Assembly: GCA_963575745.1 (NCBI GenBank)
Contig: CAUYUJ010000305.1
Coordinates: 1 to 64,000, forward strand
Direction: 5' to 3'
DNA: 64,000 nt
Origin: Prorocentrum cordatum
Lineage: Eukaryota
Made by a program: the position numbers and the translations under genes. How positions within the stretch are numbered: the first letter of the stretch is position 1; each line of letters begins with the position of its first letter. The notes below the pieces were generated by a model. It worked only from the letters and a program-made list of their open reading frames with translations. It did not search any database and had not been told where the DNA came from. Below, in pieces: positions 1 through 53,806 of this stretch.

Positions 1-505
1 ACCCCCCCCCCCATATCATGAAGATCTCTGAACAAAGACATCCAGAAAACATCAGGACGCATCCACCAATATTCAAGAGCCTCATCGTTCCATTCCTTCA
101 TTGTCTTCCTCATCCCTCATCCCTCCTCCTTCCTTAAATCACTCCTCCTTTCCACCCCCCATCTTCCCTCTTCCCTCCCCCTGTCCTATATACTCCTCGC
201 TCTTCTATGCCCCCTCTCTGCCCCGACCTCCTCCCCCGACCCCTTCCCCCTCCTACCTCCCCCGCCCCCCCTTTCCATCTCCTTCTCCTCCCCCCCTCCC
301 CCGATTGATCCTGGACGCGGGGAAGGGGAAGGGGACGAAGGAGCAGGACGCCGACCACGACCCATGGCCGCGCCTCCCCGACAAGGGGGGACATCAGGAC
401 GAGGAGAGCGACGACGACGACGACCAGAGCAGCGACGACGGCGACGCCGTCGATGAACCGCCCAACCAAGACGCCCGCGGCGACAACTGCCTCGGGGGTC
501 TTCTG

Positions 506-703
506 ACCCGGGTCAATCCAGACCCGGGTCAGTCAGGCCTTGCGGGATCTTGCAAGATCCTGCGCCCAAACCCGGGTCGATACGAACGATCCTGCAGGAT
601 CCCGCAGGATCCTGCACCCAAGCCCGGGCCAGTGCGACCCTGGCCCTGCAGGACCCTGCAACATCGGGCGCTCTGGCTGACCCCCGCTTGCATTGACCCC
701 CGC
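506..703. mobile_element. MITE family D (second copy at ~11666-11827)
   Basis: TIRs GGGTCAAT(C/G)CA and TGCA(T/C)TGACCCCCG; internal GCAGGATCCT 10-mers are shared by both copies. Confidence 0.7.
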
Positions 704-902
704 CTCTTCCAGCCCCCACCGCCGTCGCGGCCCAGCTGGCCGGCCGGCGGGCGGGCGGCGGCGGCGGCGACCCCGAAGGGGCGGCCCCCACGGCCCCAAG
801 GGGGGCGCGGACCTGCGTGGCGGCAAGGCGGGCGGGCGCCTCGGCTGCGCCCTCCGCCTGCTCCCACGGCACCTCGGCGCGGCTCCCGTCGTCGTCGTCG
901 TT

Positions 903-954
<52 letters not shown>

Positions 955-3833
955 GTGTCGTCGTCACGGTCACTGCGCGGCGTCGTCCCCCGACGCCGAC
1001 CCTCCCCCTCGACCCTGCCGCTGCCCCTTGTCGCATCCCGCCCCTTCCTCCCCCTCTATTCCTGATCTGTTCTGTATTCCCGATCGTCCCCCTATTCATG
1101 CTCCGCGTCCCCCTGGCACTCTTCCCACATGTATGAACATACAATCACAGATTTCTTCTTCGGCTTCAATTTATTCAAACGCTTTCTGATCAGGATGCCC
1201 CTGCCGCCTGTGAAAGATGCAACGCTGGAATGGGGAAGATGATGGTAGGTGCAAAGCCGAGCGGGGAAACTGCAACCCCATCATAATCATCAGATTCCCC
1301 TTACTGCGTTTCCGCATCCTCCTGCCCCCACACAAGTTCATTGCGTTTGTTCATCTGTCGTCCTCGCCTTTTTCCTCCCCGCACGCATCGTCCCCTTTGC
1401 CCAACACGCGGCTGCACTAAACAAAAAGCCTGCCCTGTAATGAAGTGGTTGGGATATGAGACTTTTGCCTGGTCGTCCGTGGCGGCCTCTTGTCCAAGGC
1501 CGGGCTAACGGCGATGTTGCTTGACGGTGACGTTGGGAACCAAATTGTAGGAAACCGCGAACAACACTTTCTTGCATTTCCAATCTGCGAATCCATCGAG
1601 CGAACACGATACTGAAAATTGCAGGAACGCGCGAGCCACTCGTTCCCACACTACCGAAAATGACATCGCCGTGACCTACACCGCCGTTAGCCCGTCTACG
1701 GCTATCCCCACCAGCATGGCCTTATCCCCACTGGCCGACTGAGCCTCCGAGGCGGGCAACTGTGCGCTGCTGTTCCCGTCGGGCTTCGCCGGACATGTCC
1801 CTGGGCTGTCTTTGAAGGACATGCGGCTCATGCATGTTGAAACTGCAACACGAATACTACATCAGGGAAACGAGCGCGCCGACGAATGGTCACGGTGCGA
1901 CGCCAAGCCGACAGACGAATACAATAACACACTACCGAAACCGACACTACACACATTACCGCTACCGAAACTGACATCGCTGTCACCTACACCGCCGTTA
2001 GCCCGTATACTGTGCGTGTTAGCTAAGGCTGTCGGACATGTTCGGTCGGTCGCCTGGATCGGGTTTTCTGTTCGGGCCTTCGGCCAGTCGCCGCCGACAT
2101 CTCGCGGTCCAGATATTTTTCCACGGCGGCTGATCGGCCGCGCGCTGCCCGACGCTTGCGCCTCCCATGCGCCGCGAAAATCGTATCACACAACTTGAGC
2201 CTGACTACCTACCAGACAACCCCAACCCAACCCAGACACCCGAATTTCGGGTTGGAGGGTGCGGGCTTCATACGTGTTCTTGTTCATTGTTCCCCGACCC
2301 CCCCACACTGGAAAGGGGGGGTAGATCGGGGTCTTCGGCTTGGGCTGGGGTGGTTTGGTGGGCGGTGAAAACCTGGTAGATCGCAAACGACACGTTGCAA
2401 CACAATAGTTCACGTCAAGTCTCGCTTCTGTTGAACGCATGGCTCCACACCCAGACCGATCAATTGCACACGACCGTGCATCCGATAAGACACCGCACCA
2501 TCCCAACTGGTCCTGTCATCTCCCATCCGTCCCGACCAAATAACACTTTGAGACCCAAAACGCATAAGCGCAAAACCCGCATCAAATACCACATCGCGAC
2601 CAACGCATGTCAAACAACTTCCCAAACGAATGGCTTCCGGTGGAAACAGACGACGAAATATCCGCTAACGCGCATCCGCTGAAACCGTGCACTGTGTAAC
2701 TGTGGCAGAAGACGCTGCCCAGTTCTGTCAGACGGGCCGATGCGGGCCACGCGCGCGCGCGATCTGAAATCACTCCTTCATCGCGCAACCGCTCGCTCTT
2801 GACCACGAGCGCGCCACCGCGAGCGCACGATGAGTTGCAGCAGGCAGTTTGCCCACGCAGGTTGCACACCACATCGGTCACGCCGCTAGACATTGGATCC
2901 ATATCCACTCTTCCGCACCGAGTTCGCCTCGATCCCAACTCCGCAGTCAGAACAAATCCTCCCTCACCCGAGCATACGCTTCCCCGGCAACAATGGTACA
3001 ACATCTTTCTTTTTTTTTGACGTCCTATCATACGACTGCGCTGGCCAGGCCGGCACCGCCACCCCCTGTGTCACCCTTGTAAATCGCAGTACGCTGTCGG
3101 GCTGTTTGTTCAGGCCCGCCCGAATAGCAGCTGCGTGTTGTGCCAACCCCAAACACGCACAAAACAGGTCACTCTTGCGCGCCTCCGTGAGCATGTCAAA
3201 ATCTGCCAAAAAGCAGGGATGCGCCCATGCAGCCATCATACATAATCGACTCGTAACAACTTGAGAGTAAACATTGCGTCGGCGCCGCGGGCGTTCCCTG
3301 ATGCGATGCCAAGCCATGCGTTTGGGCGCGGGTGCGGCCCTGGAGCGCGCTGGCGACTTCGGCGGCTTGTGGCGGCGCTGCAGGGTGTGCCTGCAATGGG
3401 GCCAAGAATGCATTGTCGATGACGGCGTCGTTCGGGGCGGCGCGGCTACCCGCGCACCAGGGAAGTAGGGAACCGAGCTCTATTCACCGACATTTGTTCT
3501 GGCCCTGCACTGAAACTCGCACAAGGAAGCAAATCCTGCTGTATACGGGATGTTGGTGTATACGTGTTAAGACCTTTCCCCCGGAAAACGGGGAAACAAA
3601 TATACACCACACCACCCCGACATCGTCCTTGACCCTCAAAAAGTCCAGGGCTTGAATAACAACGCGCCACTGGTAATGTATATGTTCCCGTTTCTGAGGA
3701 GGCGACCTGCTCCTGCAGCGCCCAACCCCCCCTCGACTCAGCTTGCGTCGGCGCTCTGCTCTGTCGAAATGCCCCCGCGTCTCGGCGACCGAGGGCATCT
3801 CGACAGCGCGCCAGATAACTCTTGGGACAATTT

Positions 3834-4030
3834 TCGGGGGCGGCCAAGAGGGGAGCGTCCGGGAGGGGCGCAAATCATGGCCGGCGGCATGTGCGCGGCC
3901 CAGAGGGTGTCCAGGGACGTAATGAAATATTTGAAATAAGGAGACGCGCCATGAAATCGGAGGAAACATCATGGCCCCCGCCATGATATCCGCCCCCCCT
4001 AGTCATCACCTCCTTCTTGGCCGCCCTTGG
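3834..4030. mobile_element. MITE family C, older copy
   Basis: Homologous to the 59780 and 61862 copies. Right TIR is degenerate and no clear TSD is visible. Confidence 0.75.
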
Positions 4031-5849
4031 GATAATCTGGGCGGTCTTGAGTCGGTCGGTCCTTGCGTCCTCTGGAGCCGCCCGGGAACCCTCGGGCGTC
4101 CCGTAATGTCTAAAAACTGATATAACAATTATTTTTGGGAGACAGGTAAAGAAATGATTGTCCCCAGCGCTGTAGTGCGCCTATAGAAAACAAAAGGAAG
4201 GCGTGGCAAACTGGATCGCTGGAGACGTCCCCGCGACCGCCCTGGCGCCCTGCGTGCAGGGGCAGATTCCTGCGACCCCCCTCTTGGCGTCAGGCCACGC
4301 CTGCCACGCCCTGCGACCCCAGCGTGGATAGAGACTGCGCTCAGGGACCACTCCGTGCGCACGGCGCACCCTGTTTGGGTTGCGAACAAGCCACACCTGA
4401 CACGCCGAGCCTGGCGTGGAAACAAACCGCACTTGGGGACCATCCCTTGCGCACACCCTCTGGTGCCGAGAGGGCCACAATTGCTTTAAGATGGCCTCCA
4501 AAATGGCGCAATATGGTCCAAGATGGCCTCATGAGACCGGCGACATGTGATGAACCTACTATGCAAGCAACGTTTGTTTTCGGAAGCGGGGAGTCGAGGC
4601 GGAGGGGAGCGGAGACAGAGTGGAACAACCGGACACGAGAGGGGCTAGACCAGGTTACGACGAAGGCCGGATCGCCCTCCAGGCCAGGAAGGCCCTCAGC
4701 AAACCGCTCAGTTCGAGGCCACACCAAGGCTACACCTGGTTACGGCGAAAGTCGCACCGCCCTCTGGGCCAAATTTGCGGGGCTACACCAGGATACGATG
4801 AAGGCCGTCCCCCCTCTGGGCCACGCAAGCGGGGCTACACCAGGTTACAACGAGGGCCAGCGCGCCTTCCAGGCTAGACATAAGGGGCTACACCAAGCTA
4901 CAGTGTCACATCGGCATTCTCCCTGGTACCGAGGTATATACAAGTGGCATCGATCGGCATCCATGGAATGTTTCCCAAGGGGGGACAAATACAAAAATAC
5001 GCATTCGGATGCGAATGAATGGCAACCGGGATCTGGGGGGGGGTCATAATTGCTTCAACCGGTTTTGGACATTAGGCCGCCCGGGACCCCCAAGCGAGCC
5101 CGGTGTCCGGGTCGGATCTTGTCCGCCCCCCCACACCCCCCGGCATTCTGCGATATACGTACTAGGTAGATAGACGTGTATATATACATATATATATATA
5201 CATGTATGGATCGATGTATGTATATACATATATGTATATATACACATACATAAGCATACTTCTACGGTTGCATGTGTGCACAACTTTTATGTGCGTATAT
5301 AAAGATCGACCGATGCATGTATACATGGAAAGATGTACGCTTGCACATACATAGATGCACATCTACTCAGATTCATAAATCGTGCAACGGCAAAGGTATC
5401 CATAACTCCGTCCGACCATTAAACCAATACACCAATAAAATCTAATCGGTTGATCGGTTTATCGGTTTATCGACTGATAAACCGGTATGATTATATCGGT
5501 TTATCTGTCGATAAACTGACAAACGAATCAACCGATAGCCTCTATCTGCGAACATAGAGGCGATTGCCGGTGCGCCCTCTCTCTCTTCGTCGGTTTACCC
5601 GTTTTCCGCTTGTTGTGTTTATCGGTCGACCGGCTGTTCTCAGACCGCTGGGCGCAATCCTGAGGAGTAGATCCTTGCTCGCATGTCGGTTTACCGGTTT
5701 ATCGGTTCATCGGCTGTTTGTTGTGCCCCCGCCGCGACGACGTCGACGACGGCAACGGCTCTGGTGCGGCCCTGCCTGATCAGCATGACTTCTGTGATTG
5801 GCTCTGGTGAGGAGTCTGGCAGCAAGGGTCCGAACTTCTGCCGTCGCGT

Positions 5850-7114: not shown

Positions 7115-9817
<2,703 letters not shown>

Positions 9818-24218: not shown

Positions 24219-24281
<63 letters not shown>

Positions 24282-24288
24282 CAGTAGC

Positions 24289-24344
<56 letters not shown>

Positions 24345-24405
24345 CGTTAGTAATAATAGTCGTAGTGGTAGTAGTAGTCGTAGTAGTCGTAGTAGTAGTC
24401 GTAGC

Positions 24406-24493
<88 letters not shown>

Positions 24494-24510
24494 TTCGTAG
24501 TAGTAGTAGA

Positions 24511-24549
<39 letters not shown>

Positions 24550-24871
24550 CGTAGTAGTAGTAGTAGTGGTAGTAGTAATAATAGTGGTAGTAGTAATAAT
24601 GATAGTCGTAGCCGTAGTAGTGGTATTAAGATCCGTGGTAATCGTAATAAAGGATGGTCTCGTATAGTACAATACAATGCAGTAGCGTATATACACAACT
24701 GCACAGTCGTAGCTAAAATAGTAGTGAAAATAGAAGAAGTAAAAATAATAATAGTCGTTTTAGTGAGATTCGTGCAGATAAAAATAAGGTTGCTAATCAT
24801 AAGAGTAGTCGTAGCCGTAGTGCACGTAATCAGATAGTCGTAGTCGTAGTAATAGTAGTAGGCGTAGCAAC

Positions 24872-24916
<45 letters not shown>

Positions 24917-25165
24917 ATAGTAATAGTAATAGTAGTAGTAAAACTGAAAATAATAGCAGTCGTAAGAATAGTCGTGGAAATCGTAATGGTGGTCGTGCTC
25001 GTCGTAATATTAGTAGCCGTCGTCGCCACAATACTCGTCGTCGCAGCAGTAGTCGTAGTATTAGTTGTACGAGTAGTACTAATAATAAAAAGAATCGCGT
25101 TGGCCGTAGCATTAAAAGTAATACCATATTTGGTAAGAGTCGTCGAAATAGTAGCAGTAGTAGCC

Positions 25166-25201
<36 letters not shown>

Positions 25202-25254
25202 ATAGTAATAGTAGTAGTAGTAGTAGTAGTAGTAGCAGTAGTAGTAGTAGCAGC

Positions 25255-25290
<36 letters not shown>

Positions 25291-25589
25291 CGTAGTGGTA
25301 GTAATAGTCGCCGTAGTAGTAGTAGTAGTAGTAGCAACAGTCGTAAGATTAGTGATAGCAGTAGTAGTGATAGTAAGAATAAAAATAGTCGTCGTAGTGG
25401 CAATAGGAGTAGACGTAATATGTTTTGCAATAATCAGAACCGTAGTGATCGTAATGATAATAATAATAATCGTAGTAGTCGTAGAAGCCGTAGTAGTAAA
25501 TCGTAGAAGTCGTGGCAGTAGTAGTAGTAGTAGTAGTAGTAGCAGTAGCAGTAGTAGGCGTTCTCGTAGTAGTAGTAATAGTAGTAGCC

Positions 25590-25647
<58 letters not shown>

Positions 25648-25719
25648 CCGTAGTACTAGCAGTCGTACTCGTAGTAGTAGTAGTAGTAGAAGTAGTAGTA
25701 GTAGTAGTAGTAGTCGTAC

Positions 25720-25756
<37 letters not shown>

Positions 25757-25757
25757 C

Positions 25758-25821
<64 letters not shown>

Positions 25822-34190: not shown

Positions 34191-35605
34191 CGGCGATGAC
34201 GGGCGTCATGGGGGGGGGGGGGAGGGCGGGCGGGGGTATGACGTGACGCCCCCCCCTCCCCGCCGTGTGGCTTCGGCACCACAGCCGCGCCCGCGCGCAC
34301 GACGCGACGAGCGACGAGCGACGAGCGACGACGACGACGCGAGCAGCATGTAAGTGGCGATCTGCCCATTGCGCCTGTGTACACCACAGCGTTCGCGTGC
34401 ACCGCGCCGCGCGTGTGCACCTCAACGCCTGCGTACACCGCAACAGCCGTGTGCAACGCACCGCCCGTGTATACCACAATACTTGGGAGCACTACATCGC
34501 CGGTGTACATACACCGCAGCAGCCATGTGCAACACAGCGCGCGTGTACACCACAGTGCTTGCGTGCACCGCAACGACCGTGCACGCCACAGCGCCTGTCT
34601 GCACCACAGCATCCGCGTGCAACACAGCGCTGGTGTACAAAATGCCTGCGTGCATAGGACAAGTAGAAGGAGCATCTAGCATGTACGTCAGGATCTGATG
34701 CGGACAACTAAACGCCACGACAGGAAAGTTCTGATAATCGAATGCGAAGTTTTTTTCCCTTGTCCCTCCTCCTCCACCTCCTCCTCCTCCTCCTCGTTTT
34801 CCTCCTCCTCCTCGTCCTCGTTTTCCTCCTTCTTACCCCCTGTCGTGCGGCTTGGCGTTACAACGCACGTGCGCATCTCAGCGTGCACCGCAGAATGGTC
34901 GATTGAATCGGTCCACTCGGTTCTCGGACGGCCAGCTTAGCTGGAGCCTCCTGGGCGCAAATGGGACTTAGGGTGGTGCGGGCAGACTCGGGGGGACTCG
35001 TAGATTCCAGCGGCGCTCCTTTGTCCATGAGGATTTGTTTTCCATTGTTTTCTCTGGAATCCACACGCGTTCCATTTTGTCACAAGGATTACTTCTGACA
35101 TTCTATACACAATAATGGTGCTGTGTTGCACACGGCTGATGTGGTGCACACAGGCGCCGTGGCGTACACAGGCACTGCAATGCACGCAGGCATTGTGGTG
35201 TACACTGGTGCTGTGTCGCGCACGGCTGATGTGGTGTACGGGGGCGCTGTGGTGTACACAGGAGTTGCTGTGCCCGCAGGCACGGTGGCACAAACTGACA
35301 CTGTGTTGCACGCGGCTGCTGTGGTGTATCAGCGGTGTGGTGTACACAGGCGCTGTGGTGCACGCGGGCACTGTGATATACACAGGCGTTGTGGTGCATA
35401 TCGCCCCGTCCATGTTCGTGCTACCCGTCCTCCGTCATTCCTGACCATTCCCAAACGCCGCCGGCGCGAAACGTGACGTCATCGACCTCGTCCCCCCCCA
35501 GATGATTGCCGTCATCGGCGCGGACTTAAAAATAGGCTCCAGCCGCGTCCGCGCGCACGAAGACGATGAGCGACGAGCGACGAACCACGAGAGACGACGA
35601 CGAAG

Positions 35606-43565: not shown

Positions 43566-43619
43566 GGAGGAGGAGGAGGAGGAGGAGGAGGAGGAGGAGG
43601 AGGAGGAGGAGGAGGAGGA
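43566..43619. repeat. Pure (GGA)18 microsatellite abutting the LINE 3' end
   Basis: 54 nt of uninterrupted GGA. Confidence 0.98.
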
Positions 43620-43659
43620 TCATGCTGGATCATGCTGCGATGCCACACACGTGGCCAGT

Positions 43660-46600
43660 TCAATCGCTGTCACCGCTATCATCACCACCGCTGCCCAACC
43701 CCTGCACACGAGCACCAGCGAGCACTGTCTGCCCCTGACCCTGGGCTCTGAGCTGGGCAGCGACTTCCTCAAGCTCATTCTCCTCATGCAAGCGAGCGGC
43801 AGCGGCAGCAAAAGCAGCAGCCGCGTCCTCGCCCACGGGTGGGGCGTCCTCGCAGACCGTCATCACGTCGGCCAGCTCTCCGACAGGGCGATCGGACGAG
43901 CGGGCCACATACTCATCAAAAATGGGCCTCTCCTCCATTGGCCTCACGGCACCACCCACGCCCCCAGTTCCTTCCCGAGGGGGTGGCGGGAGGGCTCGCG
44001 CAGCAACATCCAGCGCCGCCGCCTCACGCAAGGCCACGGGTGGGCCCCGATAAGACGGAAAAACACCCTTCTTAATTCGCTTGAGGTTTTCGCCCCCCTT
44101 TCGAGTGGGGGGGGCACACACTCTCTGAAGCCACCGACCGTCTGTCGTGGCTGTGAAACCACATCGCTGACAGAAGGTCAGCCCGAACGCACGCATCCTG
44201 GCGAGGCGGTGGCTGTGGTGAAGCTTCACAGCGCCAACCCACACCTCTCCCGAGATCGCCTCGAAACCCTCTCCAAACTCAGGGCTCAAACCCAGCGTTT
44301 CAGCCGAATCCGACGGCAGCGACGGGATCGGAACGCGGCACGGGGTCGAGGCGACAGCGAGCACCTGGCTCCTCGGGACAATCACCTTGCACACATCGCA
44401 ACGCCAGCGACCAGCGAACGGGCGAAACTTGTGCGCACTATCGCGGATCGCCTGGTCGAATTTAGTGGGCTTGCGGACCTTGGACGCTGGCGGAGCTCTG
44501 ACCCCTTCCCAAGGTTCAACCTCGAGCGCCAGCATCATCGCCCTTCTGGCCCTTCTACGCACCAGTGCCGCCGTCGTATCCCACAGGTCAGTCCGAGGGG
44601 GAGGGGCCACCACACACCAATCCCAGGACCACTGGGCCACCACCCCCGCATAGGCGTCGGCACTGGCGTTGCCCTGGCACATAAAAATATCAAACGGGGA
44701 AGTTACCGACTGCAGATTTTCCTCCGTGTGGGAGGGCGTCCAGAAAAGCGAAACCTCCCCAGGGCCACGGGGGCGGAGAGCCCGAGAAGCACGAACCCAC
44801 AAGTCCCCGTTCGGGCCCCGAGGGGAGGAGGCACGGCCACCGAGCCAATCAGAAAGCAAACTCTTGCAGTCGGTAATATAGCATGACGGACCTTGCGAGT
44901 GCTCAAGCGCGAGACAGAAGGCCTGGAGCTCTGCTCTAGGGACCGTTTGCCGACGGCCTGACAAAACCTGTCCTACACCGCACTGAGGCACCCAAGAATT
45001 AGGCGACGAGGGGTCCTGGCACATCATCACCACAGCCGAGCCGCGTCGCCTACGCCTGGGATCAGAGCTGAACTCGCCCCCAGATCCGTCACCGAAGATA
45101 AACACAGGAGGGCCTCCAGGCTCCGAGCAGAAATCGGCAATACAGCCATCCCCCAGAAGGACCTCCTGGGCCGTTTCCGCAGTCTCGACAAACCTAGGCA
45201 CCGTGAGGTCCTTCGAGGGCACTCCCCTGAGCCACAAGGCCGGCTGGGCCTCAAGGCCCGCGAGGGCCTGGGGGGTCAAAAAATCCGTTTTTGAAAAGTC
45301 TTCGTGTCCGCAATTGGCTGGGCATAGCCAAATGCGGTGAGCTAAAGTCTCAGGCTGCTCCTTACATCGGGGGCAAAGCGGCGGGCAGGAATATCCTGCG
45401 GCAATCTGCCGCTCACGAGTCCACTGGCCCCCCGAGATGACGGCAATGTCGGCGGCCCACTCGTCGAACTTGGACTTGGCAGCCAGGCGGTTCAGCTCAA
45501 TCTGCACCGTCGTCATGTCCGCTCCTGCTGCCAGATCCTCGCCCGCCCCATGGTGGGCCGCTTCCTTCCACTGCAGCTGAACACAATCATCCATGAAAGC
45601 GCCGAGCATATCCTGAAAATGCGAAGGAACAGCTGTAGCGAACTGCTCATCACCAAAAGCAGGAAACAGCCAATCATCGATCGTACCATCTGGCAAGGGA
45701 CGTGACCAGACATCAGGACTTTGCGGATCCCAGCCAATCTGCAAGAGCGTGGCCTGCACCGCGGCGATGGGGCCGCGCGCATCCTTCCACTTCACCACCT
45801 GTCGCTCAGCAGCGCCACGACGCAACTTCGCCAGTGTGATCGGCCACATCTTGCGAATGCGAGGATGGAGCATCGGCTGGGAAAGCCACAAAGCAATCCA
45901 CTCCTTAATCATCTGCTTCCTCAAATCTATGCCAGGATCAGGAACCCCAAACACAGCTTGTAATACAGAATTCAAACACCTGCCACGCTTCGTCCCAGCA
46001 ACACTCGCTGCAGCATCCCGCCTCGAAGCCAACAGAGAAGATGGAGGGGTGCCCATTATCTGATGGCCAAAGACTGCAGCAGGTAACACTCCAGTGGTGT
46101 AGAGCTTCTTGGTGATGAACCTGGTCTTGGGAAGCTGCCTCAATCGCATAACTTTTCGCTGCCGCCGTCGAGCCTGCGCACTTCGTTTCATCATCCGAGG
46201 CGCTGTCCGCCGTCGCCCTGCAGCAGCATCAGAGCCCAAGTCGACAGTGGAGCGCACGAACTGCACAGGGATACCTTTGCGAACCAGTCGACGCTGTAAC
46301 TCCACACCCATCTCATCAGAACTGGCGACAAGCTTCGTTTTGTTAGAAATCTTCAACCTGAGCTTCTTGAGCCCAGTGGCCATAGCGTCAGCAGAAGCGT
46401 CCAACTTATCAATCACCTGCTGCGTTTTGCCCTCCGCCCGACCGGCAATATCATCCACATAACTCCACAATCCAGTCGGGGGACAAGCACGGTGAACCTC
46501 ATCCAGCAACTGATGAAGCATAACTTTGGCGAGCGGAACGCCATGTCCAGAACCAGCGACGATCGAACGTGAAACCACCAAGGCGTCCGATATCATCTGG

Positions 46601-49068
46601 CCCTTCTTCAAAAGCCTGGGAGAAGAGTAAAGACCCACTTCCAATAAGAGGAAGATTGCTGGAAATCCGATGTTCAAGCCAGCCTGCATCAGCAACACGA
46701 AAGACACCGAGTCGTAGAACTTAGTGAGGTCCAAGAACAGTGTCGCATGCTCAAAAGACAAGGCGTTGGCGCCTTCATCCATCACAGCTCTGATCAGTGC
46801 CGCTCTGAGCGCTGAAGATCCAGCAATAGCAGTATCCCAAAATGCAGATTGGGCAGCTGACCATTCACCTGAGTGTTTCGCACGCACCTTAGACCATATT
46901 CTGTGCGGCGTCGGAGCCCGCCCCAACACTCTGTTGCCTCCAGCTTCCTTGGGAATCGCAGCGCCCAGGACCGAGCTGAGGGGCGACGGCCAGGCGCCAG
47001 CCTGCTCGATATTATTCAATATATCCACAAGACGCTGCCTTGCCACCAATGGCTGTCGCTGAATATCAATGGGGTTCAGCACGTCCACGCCCTTCGCCTT
47101 CGTCGCTGGCAGCGTGGGCAGCACAGCGTCCACGTCCATGATGGCGATAGCAGGAAGTGGGTCATCTCGAGCAGCTGACAGACACTGGCCCATCATATAC
47201 AAAATATCTGCAGGCTGATCGACAGGATCTCGCCACATCGCATTCCATTCAGAGGCAGACGTCTGGAGCATCGTCTGCTTGTCCGTGGTGATAGCACCTG
47301 CCGCGTCGCGGCCCTCCCACTCCAAGGGCGGAGCCTGCTTCGCATGCCGATGTACATCACCAGGCTTAGATGACCAGGACTCCTTCACCCACTTGACAAA
47401 GGACGAGCGCGAAGCTAACAAAGCCCGAGAAGTCGACAAGTCCGCCCACTTGCGCGCGGTGTCCACCAAGGAAGTGAGCTGGCCAACAGGGGCGCGATCC
47501 AAATCAGCAGCCATAGCTTTCCACAACTCAACCTCCTCAGCGGTGGACTTCTTGCCGAAGTACTCGACCGTCTTATCAGCAGGCAAGACTCCAATCCTGG
47601 CCTGTACTTCACGTGCACAGTAAGCAGCCTGATCAGGATCAGCACCATTAACACGGAGAGCCGCATGCCGAAACAACAAAGTGCTGACAACACCCCACCA
47701 CTCGGCCTGCTCGTTCTTCATGTGAGCGCGCCCAGGGGAGGAAGTGACCTTGGCCCAATAGCAAGCAGGGCCACGAGCACGACCTGAGAACTGCATCCAA
47801 GTACCGGCATCGACCTGCTCGTGAATCAAAGTGGCACGCTCCAATGTAGAAATCCAAGCTCCGTAAGACACATCCAGCCGAGCACGATCCTCAGGTTGCC
47901 ATTCAAAGACAAAGTGCTGACTGCGGTCGAAAGCTGCAACTTTGCCACGGGCACCCTCTGGCTCATCCTCAAACAGCTGGGGGAGGCCCTCCCAATGCAC
48001 CTGTGTCTGAGCTTCAAACCAAGTCTCCTCAGGAATGGCGAAAGACACAGTGGGCGCTGGCGGAGGCGCTGGCGGCTCCAGCTCGTCGAAGCCCTCCTGG
48101 AACTCGATGGGAAGCGCCTGCATGCGCCTCTGCCTCTGCTCTTCTCTCTTTTTAGACCGCTTACTCGCAGGATCAGCAACTGCAACGGGTCTATCACGAA
48201 CGGGAAGAGGCTCGGGCACTGCCAGGTGCCTATACCATCGCTGAGAACGGGCAGCCTTCACAGTAACAACCACTCCACAGTGTGTCTCCCATGGCACACG
48301 CAACTCAGCTCGAAGCGACAACTCTGGACAACCAACACTGGCAAGACCATAATCGTACATGCGCCCTGGCCCTTTGTCGCAGGTCGCTCGGCAGGACGGC
48401 GTCACCGCGACGGCGCCGAGCTTCTGGGGCCAACCAGTGCCTCGCAAGGCCGCGGGCTCGATGTTCCAGTCCGCCATCGCCAGCCAGGGGTCCGCGAGCG
48501 CGCGCGTGAAAGCCCCCAGCGCCACCAGCGCGTCATGGTTCCAGCCCTTCACGCCGAGGCCTGGCTGGAGGTAGGCAGCGATCAGGATCAAGTTGCCGCC
48601 CCTGGCGTGGATCACCGTCGGCGCGAAGCCACGGCAAGGGTCCAGGCGCCCAGCAGCGAGCGCCGTACGCCGAGCACTCTCAAAGCTCGACGTCGCCACA
48701 TGTTTCTTCGCCAGAATCCACTCGCCACCAGACAAGCCAGCCACTGACTTGCCCGAAGGGCGGGCGGCCGTGTAAGCCAAACGCCAGCCGTCTTTATCAA
48801 TCGCCTGGCAGATGTCTGGCATGTCCTTCTCTCCTTCGTGTGTCTCAACTAGGGCCACGATGCTGCGCTCCTGCTCCTGGGCTGAGAAACGCGCAGCCTG
48901 CGGGCCCCGCTCCGTGATGTTGCCGAAAAAGATGTCCAAGGACGTGTCGTCATCAGACTCTGGATGAGGTACGCCTGCAGCTCCCCCCCTGCAGGACGGG
49001 GGGCGAGCCGTGCTAAACACGGCCTGCGCCAGCACCAGCAGCCGCAACGCCCTTGCCAGCGCCCGCAT
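43660..49068 (-). CDS. LINE ORF2 polyprotein: APE/EEP endonuclease, reverse transcriptase, CCHC zinc finger, RNase H, C-terminal Cys/His knuckles (start uncertain: in-frame ATGs include 49068, 49101 and 50043)
   Basis: APE motifs GNI, LVETH, GG, AAY, MADWN, YDYGL, WETH (~48940-48260). RT motifs KAKGVD, IPKEAGGNR, LFLDLTKFYD, SIVAG, YVDD (46450-46461), DLG. Finger CPRC-x8-H-x4-C (~45320-45375). RNase H motifs FGDGS, QTVPRAEL, ITDC, PSH, GNASAD (~45100-44650). Knuckles H..RWRCDVC and H..FCQRC..C. No internal stops. Confidence 0.95.
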   Translation of the reverse strand: MRALARALRLLVLAQAVFSTARPPSCRGGAAGVPHPESDDDTSLDIFFGNITERGPQAARFSAQEQERSIVALVETHEGEKDMPDICQAIDKDGWRLAYTAARPSGKSVAGLSGGEWILAKKHVATSSFESARRTALAAGRLDPCRGFAPTVIHARGGNLILIAAYLQPGLGVKGWNHDALVALGAFTRALADPWLAMADWNIEPAALRGTGWPQKLGAVAVTPSCRATCDKGPGRMYDYGLASVGCPELSLRAELRVPWETHCGVVVTVKAARSQRWYRHLAVPEPLPVRDRPVAVADPASKRSKKREEQRQRRMQALPIEFQEGFDELEPPAPPPAPTVSFAIPEETWFEAQTQVHWEGLPQLFEDEPEGARGKVAAFDRSQHFVFEWQPEDRARLDVSYGAWISTLERATLIHEQVDAGTWMQFSGRARGPACYWAKVTSSPGRAHMKNEQAEWWGVVSTLLFRHAALRVNGADPDQAAYCAREVQARIGVLPADKTVEYFGKKSTAEEVELWKAMAADLDRAPVGQLTSLVDTARKWADLSTSRALLASRSSFVKWVKESWSSKPGDVHRHAKQAPPLEWEGRDAAGAITTDKQTMLQTSASEWNAMWRDPVDQPADILYMMGQCLSAARDDPLPAIAIMDVDAVLPTLPATKAKGVDVLNPIDIQRQPLVARQRLVDILNNIEQAGAWPSPLSSVLGAAIPKEAGGNRVLGRAPTPHRIWSKVRAKHSGEWSAAQSAFWDTAIAGSSALRAALIRAVMDEGANALSFEHATLFLDLTKFYDSVSFVLLMQAGLNIGFPAIFLLLEVGLYSSPRLLKKGQMISDALVVSRSIVAGSGHGVPLAKVMLHQLLDEVHRACPPTGLWSYVDDIAGRAEGKTQQVIDKLDASADAMATGLKKLRLKISNKTKLVASSDEMGVELQRRLVRKGIPVQFVRSTVDLGSDAAAGRRRTAPRMMKRSAQARRRQRKVMRLRQLPKTRFITKKLYTTGVLPAAVFGHQIMGTPPSSLLASRRDAAASVAGTKRGRCLNSVLQAVFGVPDPGIDLRKQMIKEWIALWLSQPMLHPRIRKMWPITLAKLRRGAAERQVVKWKDARGPIAAVQATLLQIGWDPQSPDVWSRPLPDGTIDDWLFPAFGDEQFATAVPSHFQDMLGAFMDDCVQLQWKEAAHHGAGEDLAAGADMTTVQIELNRLAAKSKFDEWAADIAVISGGQWTRERQIAAGYSCPPLCPRCKEQPETLAHRIWLCPANCGHEDFSKTDFLTPQALAGLEAQPALWLRGVPSKDLTVPRFVETAETAQEVLLGDGCIADFCSEPGGPPVFIFGDGSGGEFSSDPRRRRRGSAVVMMCQDPSSPNSWVPQCGVGQVLSGRRQTVPRAELQAFCLALEHSQGPSCYITDCKSLLSDWLGGRASSPRGPNGDLWVRASRALRPRGPGEVSLFWTPSHTEENLQSVTSPFDIFMCQGNASADAYAGVVAQWSWDWCVVAPPPRTDLWDTTAALVRRRARRAMMLALEVEPWEGVRAPPASKVRKPTKFDQAIRDSAHKFRPFAGRWRCDVCKVIVPRSQVLAVASTPCRVPIPSLPSDSAETLGLSPEFGEGFEAISGEVWVGAVKLHHSHRLARMRAFGLTFCQRCGFTATTDGRWLQRVCAPPTRKGGENLKRIKKGVFPSYRGPPVALREAAALDVAARALPPPPREGTGGVGGAVRPMEERPIFDEYVARSSDRPVGELADVMTVCEDAPPVGEDAAAAFAAAAARLHEENELEEVAAQLRAQGQGQTVLAGARVQGLGSGGDDSGDSD

Positions 49069-50053
49069 TGCCGCCTTTGCCAGCGCCAGCGGCCTTGCCA
49101 TCAGCGGCCGCACGCGCCTGCGCCTGGGCGCAGCTCTTGATGCGCTCCAGCATGGCCTTCTGGTCGCTCTCCTGCACCACGACCTTCGCCTTGCTGGGCC
49201 CAGCAGCGGCAGCAGCGGCGCCGGGCGCCGCAGCGGCGCAGCACGCCGCGGGCGTGCCTTCGGCGCCGCCGCCAGCAACGGCCTCGCCATCGGCGCCGCG
49301 CTTGCGCCGCTTGGCCGCCGCCGCCGTGTGCGCCGACCTCGTGCGCTCCAGCAAGTCCTGGAACTCCTTCTGCTTGGCGTCGACCAGCTGGGTGACCTCC
49401 TCCAGCTGCTTCTGGAAATGCTCAAGCGCCTGCCTGTCGGACTCCTCCAGCTCATCGAGGCACTCGAACAGCCCAGGGTCCAGGACGAAGCCCGACTGCT
49501 TGGTGGCCGCCTCGGGCGGGTTCGCCGCCTCCTGCACCTCCAGACGGTGCAGATCGGCGGCCAAGACAGCGTCCGCCGCCTCGTCGAACTTGGCCTGGTC
49601 CTTCTCAAGCTGGAGGCGGGACTGCTCCAGCTTCTTCGCGGCCTTCTCCAAAGCCTCCTGCTTGCGAGAGCAATCCGCCGTAGCCTCCTTGAGCAGAGCA
49701 TGCTGGGGCTTGGGCGGCGGCGCAGGGGCCGCCGCGAGCTTCTGGGACGCCAGGGTGCTGAACTCCGTCGCAAGGCGCGCCGCGTCTGGGTCCCCATCGA
49801 GACCTGCACCAGCGAGAGCCTTCGACAGGTAGTCCCCGAAGTTGGCGAGAGACGGCTGAGACTGCCCATGGTCATGCCATCCACCGCCCGAGGACCACGG
49901 CGCCCACCACGTGCCGCTCGTCGTAGTACTCCATCCTGGCTGAGGGGTATTGCAGACTGCGCACACCCCTTTCTGCTTCTTGAGCCTCCAATTCCACGCC
50001 CAGTTGCCACACTGCACGCAAGTGGAGAAACCCTGCTTGCCATACTTGACCAT
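49013..50053 (-). CDS. LINE ORF1 protein (346 aa from the ATG at 50053): N-terminal C4 zinc finger, coiled coil, basic NLS-like patch, Ala/Gly-rich tail
   Basis: MVKYGKQ start; CVQC-x15-CAVC; heptad-like segments KQEALEKAAKKLEQSRLQLEKDQAKFDEA and EHFQKQLEEVTQLVDAKQKEFQDLLE; AKRRKR. Lies between the SL/5' UTR and ORF2; TAG stop at 49015-49013. Confidence 0.88.
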   Translation of the reverse strand: MVKYGKQGFSTCVQCGNWAWNWRLKKQKGVCAVCNTPQPGWSTTTSGTWWAPWSSGGGWHDHGQSQPSLANFGDYLSKALAGAGLDGDPDAARLATEFSTLASQKLAAAPAPPPKPQHALLKEATADCSRKQEALEKAAKKLEQSRLQLEKDQAKFDEAADAVLAADLHRLEVQEAANPPEAATKQSGFVLDPGLFECLDELEESDRQALEHFQKQLEEVTQLVDAKQKEFQDLLERTRSAHTAAAAKRRKRGADGEAVAGGGAEGTPAACCAAAAPGAAAAAAGPSKAKVVVQESDQKAMLERIKSCAQAQARAAADGKAAGAGKGGNAGAGKGVAAAGAGAGRV

Positions 50054-50177
50054 CCGCTCCTGCAGGAGCTCACAAAGTATGCTCCGACAGGAGCTCACAA
50101 AAGCACTTCAGACTGGCTCGGGAGACAGAGCTATCCCAGTTTGGCACGGAGGCGCGGAGCCCCCTCGGTGCATCAGC

Positions 50178-50199
50178 CTTGAGCCAAAATGGCTACGGA
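50178..50199 (-). other. Dinoflagellate spliced leader (DinoSL), full-length 22-nt genomic copy
   Basis: Plus strand CTTGAGCCAAAATGGCTACGGA = minus strand TCCGTAGCCATTTTGGCTCAAG, a 22/22 match to the established DinoSL DCCGTAGCCATTTTGGCTCAAG. It is followed by the LINE 5' UTR rather than a recognisable SL-RNA intron. Confidence 0.97.
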
Positions 50200-50200
50200 A

Positions 50201-50317
50201 GGAGGAGGAGGAGGAGGAGGAGGAGGAGGAGGAGGAGGAGGAGGAGGAGGAGGAGGAGGAGGAGGAGGAGGAGGAGGAGGAGGAGGAGGAGGAGGAGGAG
50301 GAGGAGGAGGAGGAGGA
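50201..50317. repeat. Pure (GGA)39 microsatellite abutting the LINE 5' end and SL
   Basis: 117 nt of uninterrupted GGA. Confidence 0.98.
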
Positions 50318-50444: not shown

Positions 50445-52410
50445 CTGGGAGGCCGCCGGGTCCGGCGGGCAGGGCGGGCGGCGGGAGGGTGAGAGGGAGA
50501 CGCGTTGCGGAAGCCTATCGGCTGCACGCAAGAGTGACCCTGGGTAAGAGTGACCTTTGGTGCGCGGCTTTCTGGGGGCCAACGGGGGAACAAGCCTGGG
50601 CGCGCAAGCTGCTGCTCCTGCTTCGGTTTCAGCCATCTGGGGACCCATCTGTGCCCGCACCAAAGGTCACTCTGGCGAAAGGTCACTCTTACGTCTAGTC
50701 GAGCCTAGGGCAGAAAACCATCTCTCAGAGCATAGTGGGCCCGGCGCGACCCCAATGAGGGGGAAGCTTCCTGGTGCTGCAAGGGCGCCGTGCTTGGCAT
50801 GGCTTGGCACTGCTTGGCAGTGCATGGAGGGCCCCAAGACGGCCCAGGGAGGCTCCCAAGACGGCTCCCGAACGCGGCAAGAGTGCCAGGAACGGCGCAA
50901 GATAGCCAAAGAGGCCCCCAAGAAGCACCCAAAGGTCCCCAAGAGGCCCAAGGAGGCCCCCACGAGGCCTCCAAGAGGCCCCCAGGAAGCTCCGAGGAGG
51001 CCCCAAGAGTGATCCAAGAAACTCCCAAAAGGTCTCACCATCCTTCTCATCCTCCTTGTTCCTGCCAACCTCGTCCTCCTCTTCTTCCCCCGCGTGCTCC
51101 CCGAAGGGCTTCCACAACGGCTGGGCGAACGCATGGGTCGATAGCTTGGCCAATCTTTGCCCACGCGTTTGGCCGCATAGGCGAACCCCAAAAAGGCAGG
51201 GAGCGGCGGTGATTCTTCGCAGGCGCCGTTGAGAAACATTAGACAACTCTGCGGTCTGCGCGGGATTCTCCGATCGGCGCTGGACCCTCTCCCTGGCGCG
51301 CGGGGCGCGCCAGGGGGCGGGGGGGGCTCCAGTCGGAGACATCTGCGCAGGCCTCCTTGCACTTCTTGAAGGGTCCCTGGGACACACAAAGAAATACACA
51401 CAAATAACAGGATTCCCCATATGTTCCCATGTGTTCTGGGTTCTTGTCTTCCCCCCCACTTCCCATAGTCTCCCATCTTGTTCTAAGAATCGTAATTGTG
51501 TCTGCGTGCTCGTTCCCCTCCTGGCTGATGATGTCACTGGTTGCTCCCCGAGTGGGGGAGCAGCAGCCCGGACCCCCCGACGCCATGATTTTGTCCCAGC
51601 CATCCTGTGGTCCTTTTCTGAGGAGACAGCGCCCCGCCTCTCCCCGCCCCGCCTCTCCTCGCCTCCTCCCCCTCCCCCCGTTCCTCCCTCCTCCCCCTCC
51701 TCCGCGCCTCTCCTCTCCTCTCCTCTCCTCTCCTCTCCTCTCCACTCCTCTCCTTTTTTCCTCCTCCCCTCCCCTCCTCCCCCCTCCCCCTCATCCACCA
51801 TCAGCGCCTCTCCTCTCCTCTCCTCTCCTCTCCTCTCCTCTCCTCTCCTCTCCTCTCCTCTCCTCTCCTCCTTTTCCTCCTCCCCCTTCTCCCTCCTCCC
51901 CCTCCTCCCACCATCAGCAAACCGAAGGCCCCAGTGGCAGGGCTCGCATGCACTTCCACCCTCATCTCGTAGCACCCCTCACACGGTTCGTGGCCCCAGA
52001 GGGGGGCTCCGACGAAGGCCCCAGCGGCAGGATTCGCATGCACTTTCACCCTCATTGCGGCGCACCCCTCACACGTTTCGTGGCCCCATAGGGAGCTCCA
52101 TCGAATGCATCAGTGGCAGAGTTCGTATGCAGTTCCGCCCTCATTTCGGCGCACCCCTCACACGGCTCGTGGACACATGGAGCTCCATCGAAGGCCCCAG
52201 TGGCAGGATTCGCGTGCAGCTCCACCTTCATTTCGGCGCACCCCTCACACGGTTCGTGGCCCCATAGGGAGCTGCACCGAAGACCACAGCAGCAGGGTTC
52301 GCATGCAGTTCCTCCCCCATTTCGGCGCACCCCTCACACGGTCCGTAGCTACATAGGGAGCTCCACCGAAGGCCACATTGGCAGGGTTCGCATGCATTTC
52401 CACCCTCATT

Positions 52411-53806
52411 CCCAACCATCCTGTGGTGTTGGGTCTTCGTTTTGAAGAGACGGTGGCCCGCGTCTCCTCTCCTCCTCTCCTCCTCCCCCTCCTCCTTGCG
52501 TTTCACCCACCCAGCACAGCGTTTCGTAGCCCCATAAGGAGCTCCACCGAAGGCGCCAGTGGCAGGGTTCGCATGGCGGCCTCGGGCCATTTCGGCACAC
52601 CCCTCTCGAGGATCGTGGCCCCATAGGGAGCTCCACCGAAGGCTCCACTGGCAGGGTTCGCATGGCGGCCTCGGGCCGGGCCATTTCGGCACACCCTTCT
52701 CGAGGATCGTAGACTCATAAGGGAGCTCCACCGAAGGCCCTAGTGGCAGGGTTCGCATGGCGGCCTCGGGCCATTTCGGCACACCCCTCACGAGGATCGT
52801 GGCCCCATAGGGAGCTCCACCGAAGGCCCAGTGGCAGGGTTCGCATGGCGGCCTCGGGCCATTTCGGCACACCCCTCACGAGGATCGTGGCCCCATAGGG
52901 AGCTCCACCGAAGGCGCCAGTGGCAGGGTTCGCATGGCGGCATCGGGCCATTTCGGCACACCCCTCACGAGGATCGTGGCCCCATAGGAAGCTCCACCGA
53001 AGGCCCTAGCGGCAGGGTTCGCATGGCGGCCTCGGGCCATTTCGGCACACCCCTCACGAGGATCGTGGCCCCATAGGGAGCTCCACCGACTGCCCCCAGT
53101 GGCAGGGTTCGCATGGCGGCCTTGGGCCATTTCGGCACACCCCTCACGAGGATCGTGGCCCCATAGGGGGCTCCGCCGAAGGCCCCCAGTGGCAGGGTTC
53201 GCACGGCGGCCTCGGGCCATTTCGGCACACCCCTCACGACGATCGTGGCTCCACAGGGAGCTCCACCGAAGGCGCCAGTGGCAGGGTTCGCATGGCGGCC
53301 TCGGGCCATGTCGGCGCACCCCTCACGAGGATCGCGGCCCCATAGGGAGCTCCACCGAAGGCCCCAGTGGCAGGGTTCGCATGGCGGCTTCGGGCCATTT
53401 CGGCACACCCCTCACGAGGACCGTGGCCCTACTGCAGCTCCACCGAAGGCGCCAATGGCAGGGTTCGCATGGCGGCCCCGGGCCATTTCGGCACACCCCT
53501 CACGAGGATCGTGGCCCCATAGTTGCGCTGCTTCAACAACCGCGCCTGGGCGTCGTACTCCGCCTTGTCGACGTGCAACGCCACCTCCACCCTCATGGCT
53601 CTCAAGGCCCTTTCCTGCTTCTGCTCCTCGGTGAGAGGGACGCCGTCCTTGTCGTCGTCGGCGCCCGCGAAGACGGCCACGAACGTGTCCCTGAGCATGT
53701 CGGGCTCCGGCGGGAAGCCGTGGCCACATAGGGAGCGCGGGCGAAGATGGTATTCACAATTGCGGTATTCACAACTGCATATGGTTGGGTCCTTCGCCAG
53801 GATAAG
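52411..53806 (+). mobile_element. Non-autonomous Helentron/HINE-like element with ~11 copies of an ~89-bp tandem repeat, nested in a related element
   Basis: Left terminus CCCAACCAT follows TT. Its inverted copy ATGGTTGGG is subterminal (53781-53789), followed by hairpin TCCT-TCGCC-AGGA and TAAG|TTTT. There is a CT-rich tract and a central array. It splits an outer repeat unit at CACCCTCATT|TTTTGCGCACCCCTC with no clear TSD. Confidence 0.6.
53522..53719 (-). pseudogene. Unique coding-like fragment inside the tandem array, possibly from a Helitron Rep/helicase N-terminal (DUF6570-like) region
   Basis: Stop-free minus-strand translation GFPPEPDMLRDTFVAVFAG...EVALHVDKAEYDAQARLLKQRNY with GC3-rich codons. 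Flanked on both sides by GTGGCC(C/A)CATAG from the repeat unit. Family assignment is from memory of the motif pattern only. Confidence 0.4.

Follow-up and report, generated by a model that had tools for sequence, protein, structure and literature searches.

How does a retrotransposon come to carry, as its own first nucleotides, the spliced leader that its host adds to messenger RNAs, and what would such a 5' end mean for the way in which the element is expressed? The question is raised by a stretch of 64,000 nucleotides (nt) of the Prorocentrum cordatum genome (GenBank assembly GCA_963575745.1, contig CAUYUJ010000305.1, positions 1 to 64,000; hereafter the window, meaning the whole stretch that was analysed), the minus strand of which holds a long interspersed nuclear element (LINE) whose 5' end is the dinoflagellate spliced leader (DinoSL). 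Dinoflagellate cells trans-splice this 22-nt leader onto their mRNAs. Here we report that the element is bracketed by a single type of microsatellite and that a distant LINE on an unrelated contig is laid out in the same way, and we argue that a leader-bearing RNA of the LINE was probably trans-spliced, fully reverse-transcribed and inserted into a microsatellite. How such a copy is then expressed is weighed separately, with more caution.

A LINE headed by the spliced leader and bracketed by one microsatellite

The element is read 5' to 3' on the minus strand, and positions are those of the 64-kb window (Table 1). On its 5' side stands (TCC)39 and on its 3' side (TCC)18, both perfect; a direct-repeat search gave these TCC tracts as the sole direct repeats bracketing the element and returned no long terminal repeats (LTRs). 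The leader ends in AG and the 5' untranslated region (UTR) adjoins it directly, with an imperfect direct repeat of about 25 nt immediately before the ATG of the first open reading frame (ORF1). The frame of ORF2, which differs from that of ORF1, is stop-free from 50094 to its terminator, and the candidate ORF2 ATG (49068) overlaps the end of ORF1. When up to three mismatches are allowed, the leader 21-mer matches once in 64 kb and in none of 100 dinucleotide shuffles. A second, relic leader was sought with a 15-nt pattern (up to two mismatches), which matches within the leader itself and otherwise only once more in the window, at chance level with two mismatches, at 35072.

Most of the structural claims of the original prediction stood up to these readings: a perfect 22-nt DinoSL at the element's start (none of the shuffles reproduced it), no relic leader behind it, a 124-nt UTR and two uninterrupted ORFs after it, and (TCC)39 upstream (39.3 copies at 100% matches). 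The 3' limit that it gave, 43620, coincides with the final base of the 3' UTR; what it overlooked is the (TCC)18 that lies directly beyond.

Neither UTR of the window element folds better than its shuffled counterparts (z -1.24 for the 5' UTR, z 0.50 for the 40-nt 3' UTR), and the 3' UTR of the second LINE, described below, does not beat its shuffles either. Around the 5' end, Rfam gave two matches only, both far under their gathering scores.

Table 1. Features of the two leader-headed LINEs (window positions for the P. cordatum element, contig positions for G001:C12)
Feature	Positions	Strand	Basis
5' flanking microsatellite (TCC)39	50200..50317	-	Tandem Repeats Finder (TRF): 39.3 copies, 100% matches
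DinoSL TCCGTAGCCATTTTGGCTCAAG, 22 nt, perfect	50178..50199	-	sequence reading, pattern search and shuffles
5' UTR, 124 nt, begins GCTGATGCACC	50054..50177	-	sequence reading
ORF1, 346 aa and stop	49013..50053	-	ATG at 50053, stop 49015-49013
ORF2, 1802 aa from candidate ATG 49068	43660..49068	-	stop 43662-43660
Predicted apurinic-type endonuclease (APE) domain	48280..48861	-	assigned by homology to P0012
Reverse transcriptase (RT) domain	46324..46953	-	Pfam RVT_1
Cys/His motif behind RT (weak zf-RVT) and RNase H domain	44650..45444	-	weak Pfam, relatives, profile A2
3' UTR, 40 nt, without poly(A)	43620..43659	-	sequence reading
3' microsatellite (TCC)18, perfect	43566..43619	-	TRF: 18.0 copies, 100% matches
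G001:C12 (AGAGAGAC)n/(AG)n	1-116		
G001:C12 leader, 21 of 22 nt; first base absent or within repeat	117-137		
G001:C12 UTR between leader and ORF1			
G001:C12 ORF1 with zinc-finger motif	ATG 231 to 1343		
G001:C12 open frame, 7.6 kb (ORF2)	to 8965		
G001:C12 short 3' UTR, ending in A6			
G001:C12 (GA)n	9006-9073		

The leader does not belong to an SL-RNA gene

Genomic leader sequence is expected where the spliced-leader RNA (SL-RNA) itself is encoded, and comparison loci were obtained by scanning the leader 21-mer through one genome per prokaryote species. The scan gave 20 stretches, all of them in metagenome-assembled genomes (MAGs) and all evidently eukaryotic contamination. Among them, the SL-RNA-gene-like loci (L128/L141, L129 with two tandem copies, L134 with two copies, L140 and L138) continue from the leader into GTAC... 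or GTTG..., whereas the window continues into GCTGATGCACC and reaches ORF1 124 nt later. Because the bases after the leader are unlike an SL-RNA gene intron and the flanks are microsatellite, the leader of the element is, by sequence context, not part of an SL-RNA gene. That neither flank resembles such a gene had been noted in the original prediction, and both the (TCC)n flanks and the GTAC/GTTG comparison agree with it.

The surroundings are informative in a further respect. The sequence beyond (TCC)39 is unlike the 3' UTR of the element; (TCC)39 is therefore target sequence and does not represent the tail of an adjacent copy of this family. Downstream of (TCC)18 the sequence is unrelated. 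Since both flanks are the same repeat, a target-site duplication would be indistinguishable from the target, and the 3' (TCC)18 may belong to the element as its tail or to the target as its second half. What the window holds, then, is a genomic DinoSL directly before an intron-less coding unit and outside an SL-RNA gene, which is the arrangement that defines a DinoSL-tagged retrocopy; a genomic leader so placed has been read as a mark of reverse-transcribed, trans-spliced mRNA (PMC5585692, PMC6050394, PMC12014239; papers given here by PMC number are cited for individual passages).

Coding capacity and domain order

In ORF1, an N-terminal CxxC...CxxC motif is followed by a helical middle part and an Ala/Gly-rich end. 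The protein matched no Pfam family; a protein search followed by alignment gave three P. cordatum proteins as its relatives, at 97, 73 and 65% identity. ORF2 has five relatives in the protein search, three of which are labelled Prorocentrum cordatum, and the P. cordatum relatives of both ORFs are unnamed proteins. In one P. cordatum gene model related to ORF1 (P0005), the ORF1 homologue continues uninterrupted, in the same frame, into the beginning of the endonuclease, so that some copies or gene models fuse ORF1 and ORF2.

Direct Pfam matches to ORF2 are modest: RVT_1 reaches 30.3 bits for the domain segment (cut-off 29.6) and 26.7 bits in the whole frame, and zf-RVT (E 0.027) and RNase_H (E 0.061) match weakly. 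The protein P0012 is more informative, with BLASTP aligning ORF2 to it over the whole length, from the endonuclease through to the C-terminus (E 6e-156). P0012 carries Exo_endo_phos (28.8 bits, cut-off 24.5; residues 8-200), RVT_1 and RNase_H, all over cut-off, and the APE region of the window aligns with these same residues 8-200. When twelve ORF2 relatives were scanned with Pfam, RNase_H was over cut-off in eight and Exo_endo_phos in three; RVT_1 was over cut-off in three, exactly at it in one and under it in two. A profile made from a 14-sequence alignment of the ORF2 family (profile A2) recovers human LINE-1 ORF2p (E 8.8e-11) as well as many solved RNase H chains (best E 4e-9). The profile was required for this, the PDB search with the single ORF2 sequence having given no match at E<=0.1. 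The ESM Atlas lists RT, RNase H and endonuclease clusters. After the RNase H, ORF2 carries a long Cys-rich C-terminus, and no restriction-like endonuclease Pfam family appears at E<=1 in its C-terminal 338 aa.

Taken together, these matches identify the element as a non-LTR retrotransposon with the domain order APE-RT-RNase H, in which the putative APE domain is placed N-terminal to the RT indirectly, through homology to P0012. The original prediction had called the LINE intact; the open ORF1 and ORF2, with their endonuclease, RT and RNase H parts, bear this out.

A second leader-headed LINE

Among the contigs from the prokaryote scan is G001:C12, 9096 nt long with a GC content of 70%, which is filed under a Pseudomonadota MAG and is a eukaryotic contig mis-binned there. 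It, too, carries a LINE behind the leader (Table 1). In Pfam its ORF2 matches Exo_endo_phos at 36.6 bits and RVT_1 at 43.3 bits; hhalign compares it to profile A2 with probability 100 and E 6e-48, and tblastn finds it about 25% identical to the window ORF2. The ORF1s and UTRs of the two elements are not alignable, and no relic leader is found in G001:C12. Two distant LINEs thus share one layout: microsatellite, leader, ORF1, ORF2 and the same microsatellite again. In G001:C12 a long open frame spans ORF1 and ORF2, with one stop at 1355.

Eleven leader sites of the prokaryote scan lie outside SL-RNA-gene-like loci and have 25 nt or more of upstream sequence, and four of the eleven have a simple repeat directly before the leader: L135, L126 with (TCA)10, L137 with (GACA)6 and L123 with an imperfect TG-rich tract. 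L123, L126 and L137 have no similarity to LINE proteins. These three stand at contig starts, where assemblies break, and the count of four in eleven may therefore be biased.

Copies and relatives elsewhere

The 64-kb window holds no second copy of the element. Its RT-RNase H part, searched against 1.84 billion cluster representatives, matched 4843 at E<=1e-3; of these, 331 reached E<=1e-30. Lengths of about 1550-1730 aa are common among the matches, and ten of ten clusters looked up among the distant relatives are without a name. Contigs of sequencing runs were placed on the element at 90% likeness, with the element divided into 30 bins. Run X1, recorded as probably DNA, contains 58% of the words sampled from the element's 5' 2 kb; its 401 contigs fall in all 30 bins, with 125 at >=99% identity, 161 at 95-99% and 115 at 90-95%. 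The other runs gave 180 contigs in 12 of the 30 bins (X2), 33 in 26 (X3, labelled marine metagenome) and 13 in nine (X6). Judged by these contigs, the LINE is a many-copy element. The copy in the window presumably is, or recently was, active.

The same contigs vary at the junction of leader and UTR. Among the matches listed, the leader of one X1 contig leads straight into position 50076, with 101 nt skipped; another X1 contig has a UTR shorter by 66 nt; in one X3 contig the five bases after the leader differ from the window, and the window's UTR follows them; and one X2 contig has TCC repeats and then the leader. Further listed contigs share the leader alone and then diverge, these being other leader-bearing loci. 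At the opposite end, the similarity of one X1 contig to the element is limited to the 3' UTR and the first part of the TCC tail (window 43610-43660), with 255 unlike bases in place of ORF2; this contig could represent a non-autonomous partner, or a different family sharing this 3' end.

Searches of other collections added no relatives. In metagenomes, the ORF1 alignment (A1) gave 590 pattern matches, none confirmed, and a 20-nt UTR pattern gave three loci, all chance matches in unrelated sequence. The 119 leader-bearing viral loci discussed below contain no relatives of ORF1 or ORF2, and the RT region, used as a query against viral contigs, gave seven pattern matches, none confirmed.

Origin of the leader at the 5' end

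We propose the following course of events. The element RNA would gain the 22-nt leader by trans-splicing, as nuclear mRNAs of the host do; the element's endonuclease would nick a (TCC)n microsatellite; the 3' end of the RNA, lying in or running into UCC repeats, would pair with the nicked GGA strand; and reverse transcription would proceed to the 5' end of the RNA, so that the leader would be written against the upstream half of the microsatellite. We consider it probable that this is what happened and, jointly with it, that the copy is young, full-length and autonomous. The origin from a trans-spliced, reverse-transcribed RNA is favoured because the bases after the leader are unlike those of SL-RNA genes, because a second LINE is headed by the leader and because leader-UTR junctions vary. 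The original prediction had already placed a LINE outside an SL-RNA gene and explained its leader by trans-splicing followed by reverse transcription to the 5' end, which remains the best explanation; the microsatellite setting had escaped it.

Two other origins were weighed. The presence of a leader beside a LINE is the only point that would suggest a remnant of an SL-RNA gene hit by a site-specific LINE of the CRE/SLACS/CZAR or NeSL kind, and we regard this as extremely improbable: the leader is whole and is followed by a UTR and ORF1 and not by a GT-initiated intron, (TCC)39 lies upstream and (TCC)18 followed by unrelated sequence downstream, and the predicted endonuclease is an N-terminal APE domain, with no restriction-like endonuclease family behind the RT. 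Misjoins are common at repeats, and a cDNA-derived or chimeric join of a microsatellite to a transcript could in principle have produced the structure during assembly. We judge such an artefact very improbable, given that leader-UTR junctions also occur in contigs of X1 (probably DNA) and X3 (marine metagenome), that the X2 contig runs from TCC repeats into the leader, and that an independent contig of another organism has the same layout.

Several observations nonetheless weigh against insertion of a trans-spliced RNA into a microsatellite as we propose it. TCC and CTC tracts abound in the window, so that a landing in TCC is less telling and a claim of specificity from a single copy is weakened. 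Pfam found no match in the endonuclease segment of ORF2 itself. No more than two leader-headed LINEs came to light, and each of the two families is represented by a single copy. The joint of the X1 contig at 50076 has no preceding AG in the window copy, and it is therefore not clean evidence of an alternative acceptor. Both the trans-splicing of the element RNA and its priming on the repeat are steps that we infer. Finally, a role of (TCC)n as the polypyrimidine tract of the acceptor was considered and rejected as a general explanation, as the second LINE has purine (AG)n upstream.

How a copy may be expressed

The absence of relic leaders bears on how an integrated copy is transcribed. In retrogenes, relics mostly begin at CCATTTTGG, and the acceptor normally used is the AG inside the leader, at positions 6-7 (PMC12014239). 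Because splicing at this internal AG would leave relics, these should accumulate over many LINE generations. Neither LINE has one; therefore, either the terminal AG of the leader is the acceptor, or the leader is transcribed as a part of the element, or only leader-less master copies are active.

A cycle that depends on splicing and dispenses with a promoter would make use of the terminal AG: a host transcript reading through the copy would be trans-spliced at the AG of the integrated leader, giving a capped mRNA, and the 5' end would be rebuilt in each generation. This is the model of the original prediction, and we regard it tentatively, as a possibility that falls somewhat short of an even chance. 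Splicing at the terminal AG would recreate the observed structure exactly, and it fits the lack of relics in both leader-headed LINEs, even though a LINE lineage is copied many times over; variation of the junction in other contigs suggests more than one attachment of the leader; and dinoflagellate genes lie in long one-directional arrays with little transcriptional regulation (PMC11071213). What speaks against it is that the usual internal acceptor (PMC12014239) would leave a relic here, and that no neighbouring gene or direction of transcription was recognised when the 205 ORFs of at least 130 aa were scanned with Pfam. It is unlikely, in our view, that the leader was instead captured once and is now a DNA-templated part of the 5' UTR, served by an internal promoter or by the TTT(T/G) motif within DinoSL, which has been proposed as a promoter for retrocopies (Song et al., 2017, PMC5585692). 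Such inheritance would account for the missing relics in the two cases, and mRNAs that start with the leader may be well handled by the cell; moreover, giant-virus DNA encodes the leader a median of 47 nt before ORFs and a positive-sense single-stranded RNA (+ssRNA) virus contig begins with it, so that a genome-encoded leader seems useful in itself. Yet a perfect leader stands on two LINEs whose ORF2s are about 25% identical and whose UTRs are unrelated, which would require repeated capture or continual renewal. The leader-UTR junctions vary among contigs, and a promoter within the leader would start transcripts downstream, such that splicing would have to restore the leader in any case.

Splicing-dependent expression can be extended into a wider and more speculative picture, to which we assign a rather low probability: a widespread dinoflagellate lineage of promoter-less LINEs may integrate into microsatellites, ride as passengers in host gene arrays, be freed and capped by trans-splicing at the AG of their own leader and be renewed without relics, with the same enzymes writing the leader-tagged retrogenes of the host. 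If this were true, leader-tagged retrogenes should share the junction of leader against microsatellite, as seen at four of the 11 informative leader sites. Were expression to depend on trans-splicing, it would offer a retrotransposon a way to live without a promoter; our literature search found no paper describing a trans-splicing-dependent, promoter-less retrotransposon.

Leaders in viral contigs

That the leader may be encoded in genomes other than those of dinoflagellates is suggested by IMG/VR, which we scanned for the leader 21-mer. The scan returned 119 stretches with 135 distinct leader sites, mostly in AT-rich contigs named as giant-virus MAGs. For the 121 sites in loci below 36% GC with at least 1.5 kb downstream, the first ATG follows at the median distance given above, and it opens an ORF of at least 100 aa at 83% of the leader sites, compared with 10.6% of 605 randomly chosen control positions. 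CCGTAG is preceded by A at 115 of 119 viral sites. These leaders look like mimicry of the host leader in the genomes of DNA viruses, as far as sequence can tell; a literature search covering titles and the starts of abstracts found no paper on giant DNA viruses encoding the leader.

The viral leader is a perfect DinoSL (A and 21 nt) in loci L004-L122, for example L007, L014-L016, L027, L033 and L054-L060, and AT-rich motifs recur upstream of it. Hallmark genes of nucleocytoplasmic large DNA viruses were recognised in L007 (major capsid protein, 180.5 bits; VLTF3, 155.1 bits) and L033 (capsid protein). The leader-preceded viral ORFs (n=84) include ten DUF4116 repeat proteins, and most are without a Pfam family. 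L027 and L067 contain leader-spacer-leader tandems. A different kind of contig is L070 (IMGVR_UViG_3300008016_000003, positions 1-5319), 5.3 kb long and GC-richer, which begins exactly with DinoSL and has a first long ORF matching viral RdRP_1 at 29.3 bits. The contig probably represents a leader-bearing genome or transcript of a dinoflagellate +ssRNA virus, of the sort described in published passages on dinoRNAV.

Other leader-bearing contigs and the rest of the window

Further observations come from the leader sites in prokaryote MAGs, in which dinoflagellate DNA is present. L133 has a leader and two relic leaders. Three leader-headed contigs (L123, L132 and L137) belong to one Limnohabitans MAG, which also holds LINE fragments. 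L124 lies among many microsatellites within a 5.3-Mb 'chromosome' of an Ekhidna MAG, where a chimeric join is possible. In L130, a 209-kb contig of a Rhodospirillaceae MAG, a 21-nt leader stands on the minus strand at 7980-8060 between two 19-nt direct repeats, TTTTGCTTGCAGGCGTGAG, as if it had been inserted together with a duplication; ACTTT motifs stud the kilobase upstream of it. A 1333-aa ORF about 4 kb downstream of this leader matches RVT_1 weakly (E 1.1e-5); the ORF was ruled out as a member of the LINE family (hhalign probability 0.1).

The window as a whole has a GC content of about 60%. Outside the element, the 205 ORFs of at least 130 aa show no convincing Pfam domain, only low-complexity matches. 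Dense blocks of (ACT)n/(CTA)n/(TAC)n (minus-strand notation) occupy 7130-9790 and 24220-25820; they fall on the only stretches of low GC content in the window (0.42 and 0.39), and GC skew is strong there. A tandem array of five units of about 89 nt, at 79-100% identity, lies at 51923-52443, a short way upstream of the element's flank, and is adjoined by CT-rich simple repeats at 51630-51930.

Comparison with known systems

The CRE/SLACS/CZAR elements and NeSL-1 insert into SL-RNA genes and use a restriction-like endonuclease. They resemble the present element in that a LINE lies physically beside spliced-leader sequence, and they differ from it in that it has a predicted APE domain, a microsatellite site and the leader as its own 5' end. 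Microsatellite-specific non-LTR retrotransposons include Dong, Kibi, Koshi, Waldo and Mino. Like them, our LINE has the same repeat on both sides, lacks poly(A) and ends in a very short 3' UTR; however, most of those published carry a restriction-like endonuclease, and the specificity described here is that of one copy each of two families. Both the target types of SL-gene-specific LINEs and further microsatellite-specific non-LTR retrotransposons, namely the (TG)n-specific Togen and some HERO families, are listed in PMC4640811.

An instructive contrast is offered by the trypanosomatid L1Tc/ingi elements, which are likewise APE-type LINEs in organisms in which all mRNAs are trans-spliced. These begin with Pr77, an internal promoter of 77 nt, and have unspliced transcripts (PMC1874656, PMC8190864). 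The element described here begins with the leader itself, which would imply a trans-spliced RNA and hence the opposite solution. At the level of the protein, human LINE-1 ORF2p (8uw3, 8sxt, 8c8j) has an RT that profile A2 matches at E ~1e-10 and, like ORF2 as predicted, an APE domain N-terminal to it; unlike LINE-1 ORF2p, to which its identity is low, ORF2 adds an RNase H and the long Cys-rich C-terminus. Among selfish genomes that begin with the host leader, the closest parallel is found in dinoflagellate RNA viruses, for which leader 'mimicry' has been described (Levin et al., 2017, as reported in PMC9651163 and PMC10235124); the present case, unlike these viruses, is a retrotransposon integrated in DNA.

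LINEs of Polarella and of the better-studied Symbiodiniaceae have been portrayed as old remnants (PMC8045281, PMC10235124). In their account of leader-tagged genes, Song et al. report the Gene Ontology (GO) term 'RNA-dependent DNA replication' as enriched among them, and the passages concerned do not describe LINE 5' ends (PMC5585692); leader-tagged RT genes have thus been seen in bulk and not as the 5' ends of LINEs. The enzyme behind leader-tagged retrogenes is considered unknown in the same source (PMC5585692), and LTR elements have been favoured as their origin elsewhere (PMC6050394). Our literature search, with subscription journals and supplements outside its scope, found no description of a DinoSL-headed LINE or of a microsatellite-flanked dinoflagellate LINE. 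New here are the microsatellite bracket, the second, independent leader-headed LINE and the absence of relics.

The comparison that matters most is with the DinoSL-tagged retrogenes themselves, reportedly described by Slamovits and Keeling in 2008 as 'mRNA recycling'. Dinoflagellate genomes are full of such leader-carrying retrocopied genes, and these share with the element a genomic leader directly before an intron-less coding unit; what sets the element apart is that the tagged unit is the retrotransposon itself, full-length, many-copy and bracketed by a microsatellite. In a bloom-forming lineage, an intact and recently copied LINE whose leader-bearing RNA was most likely copied to its 5' end has the activity that leader-tagged retrogenes need, and the leader set directly against a microsatellite provides a junction signature that can be searched for in those retrogenes.

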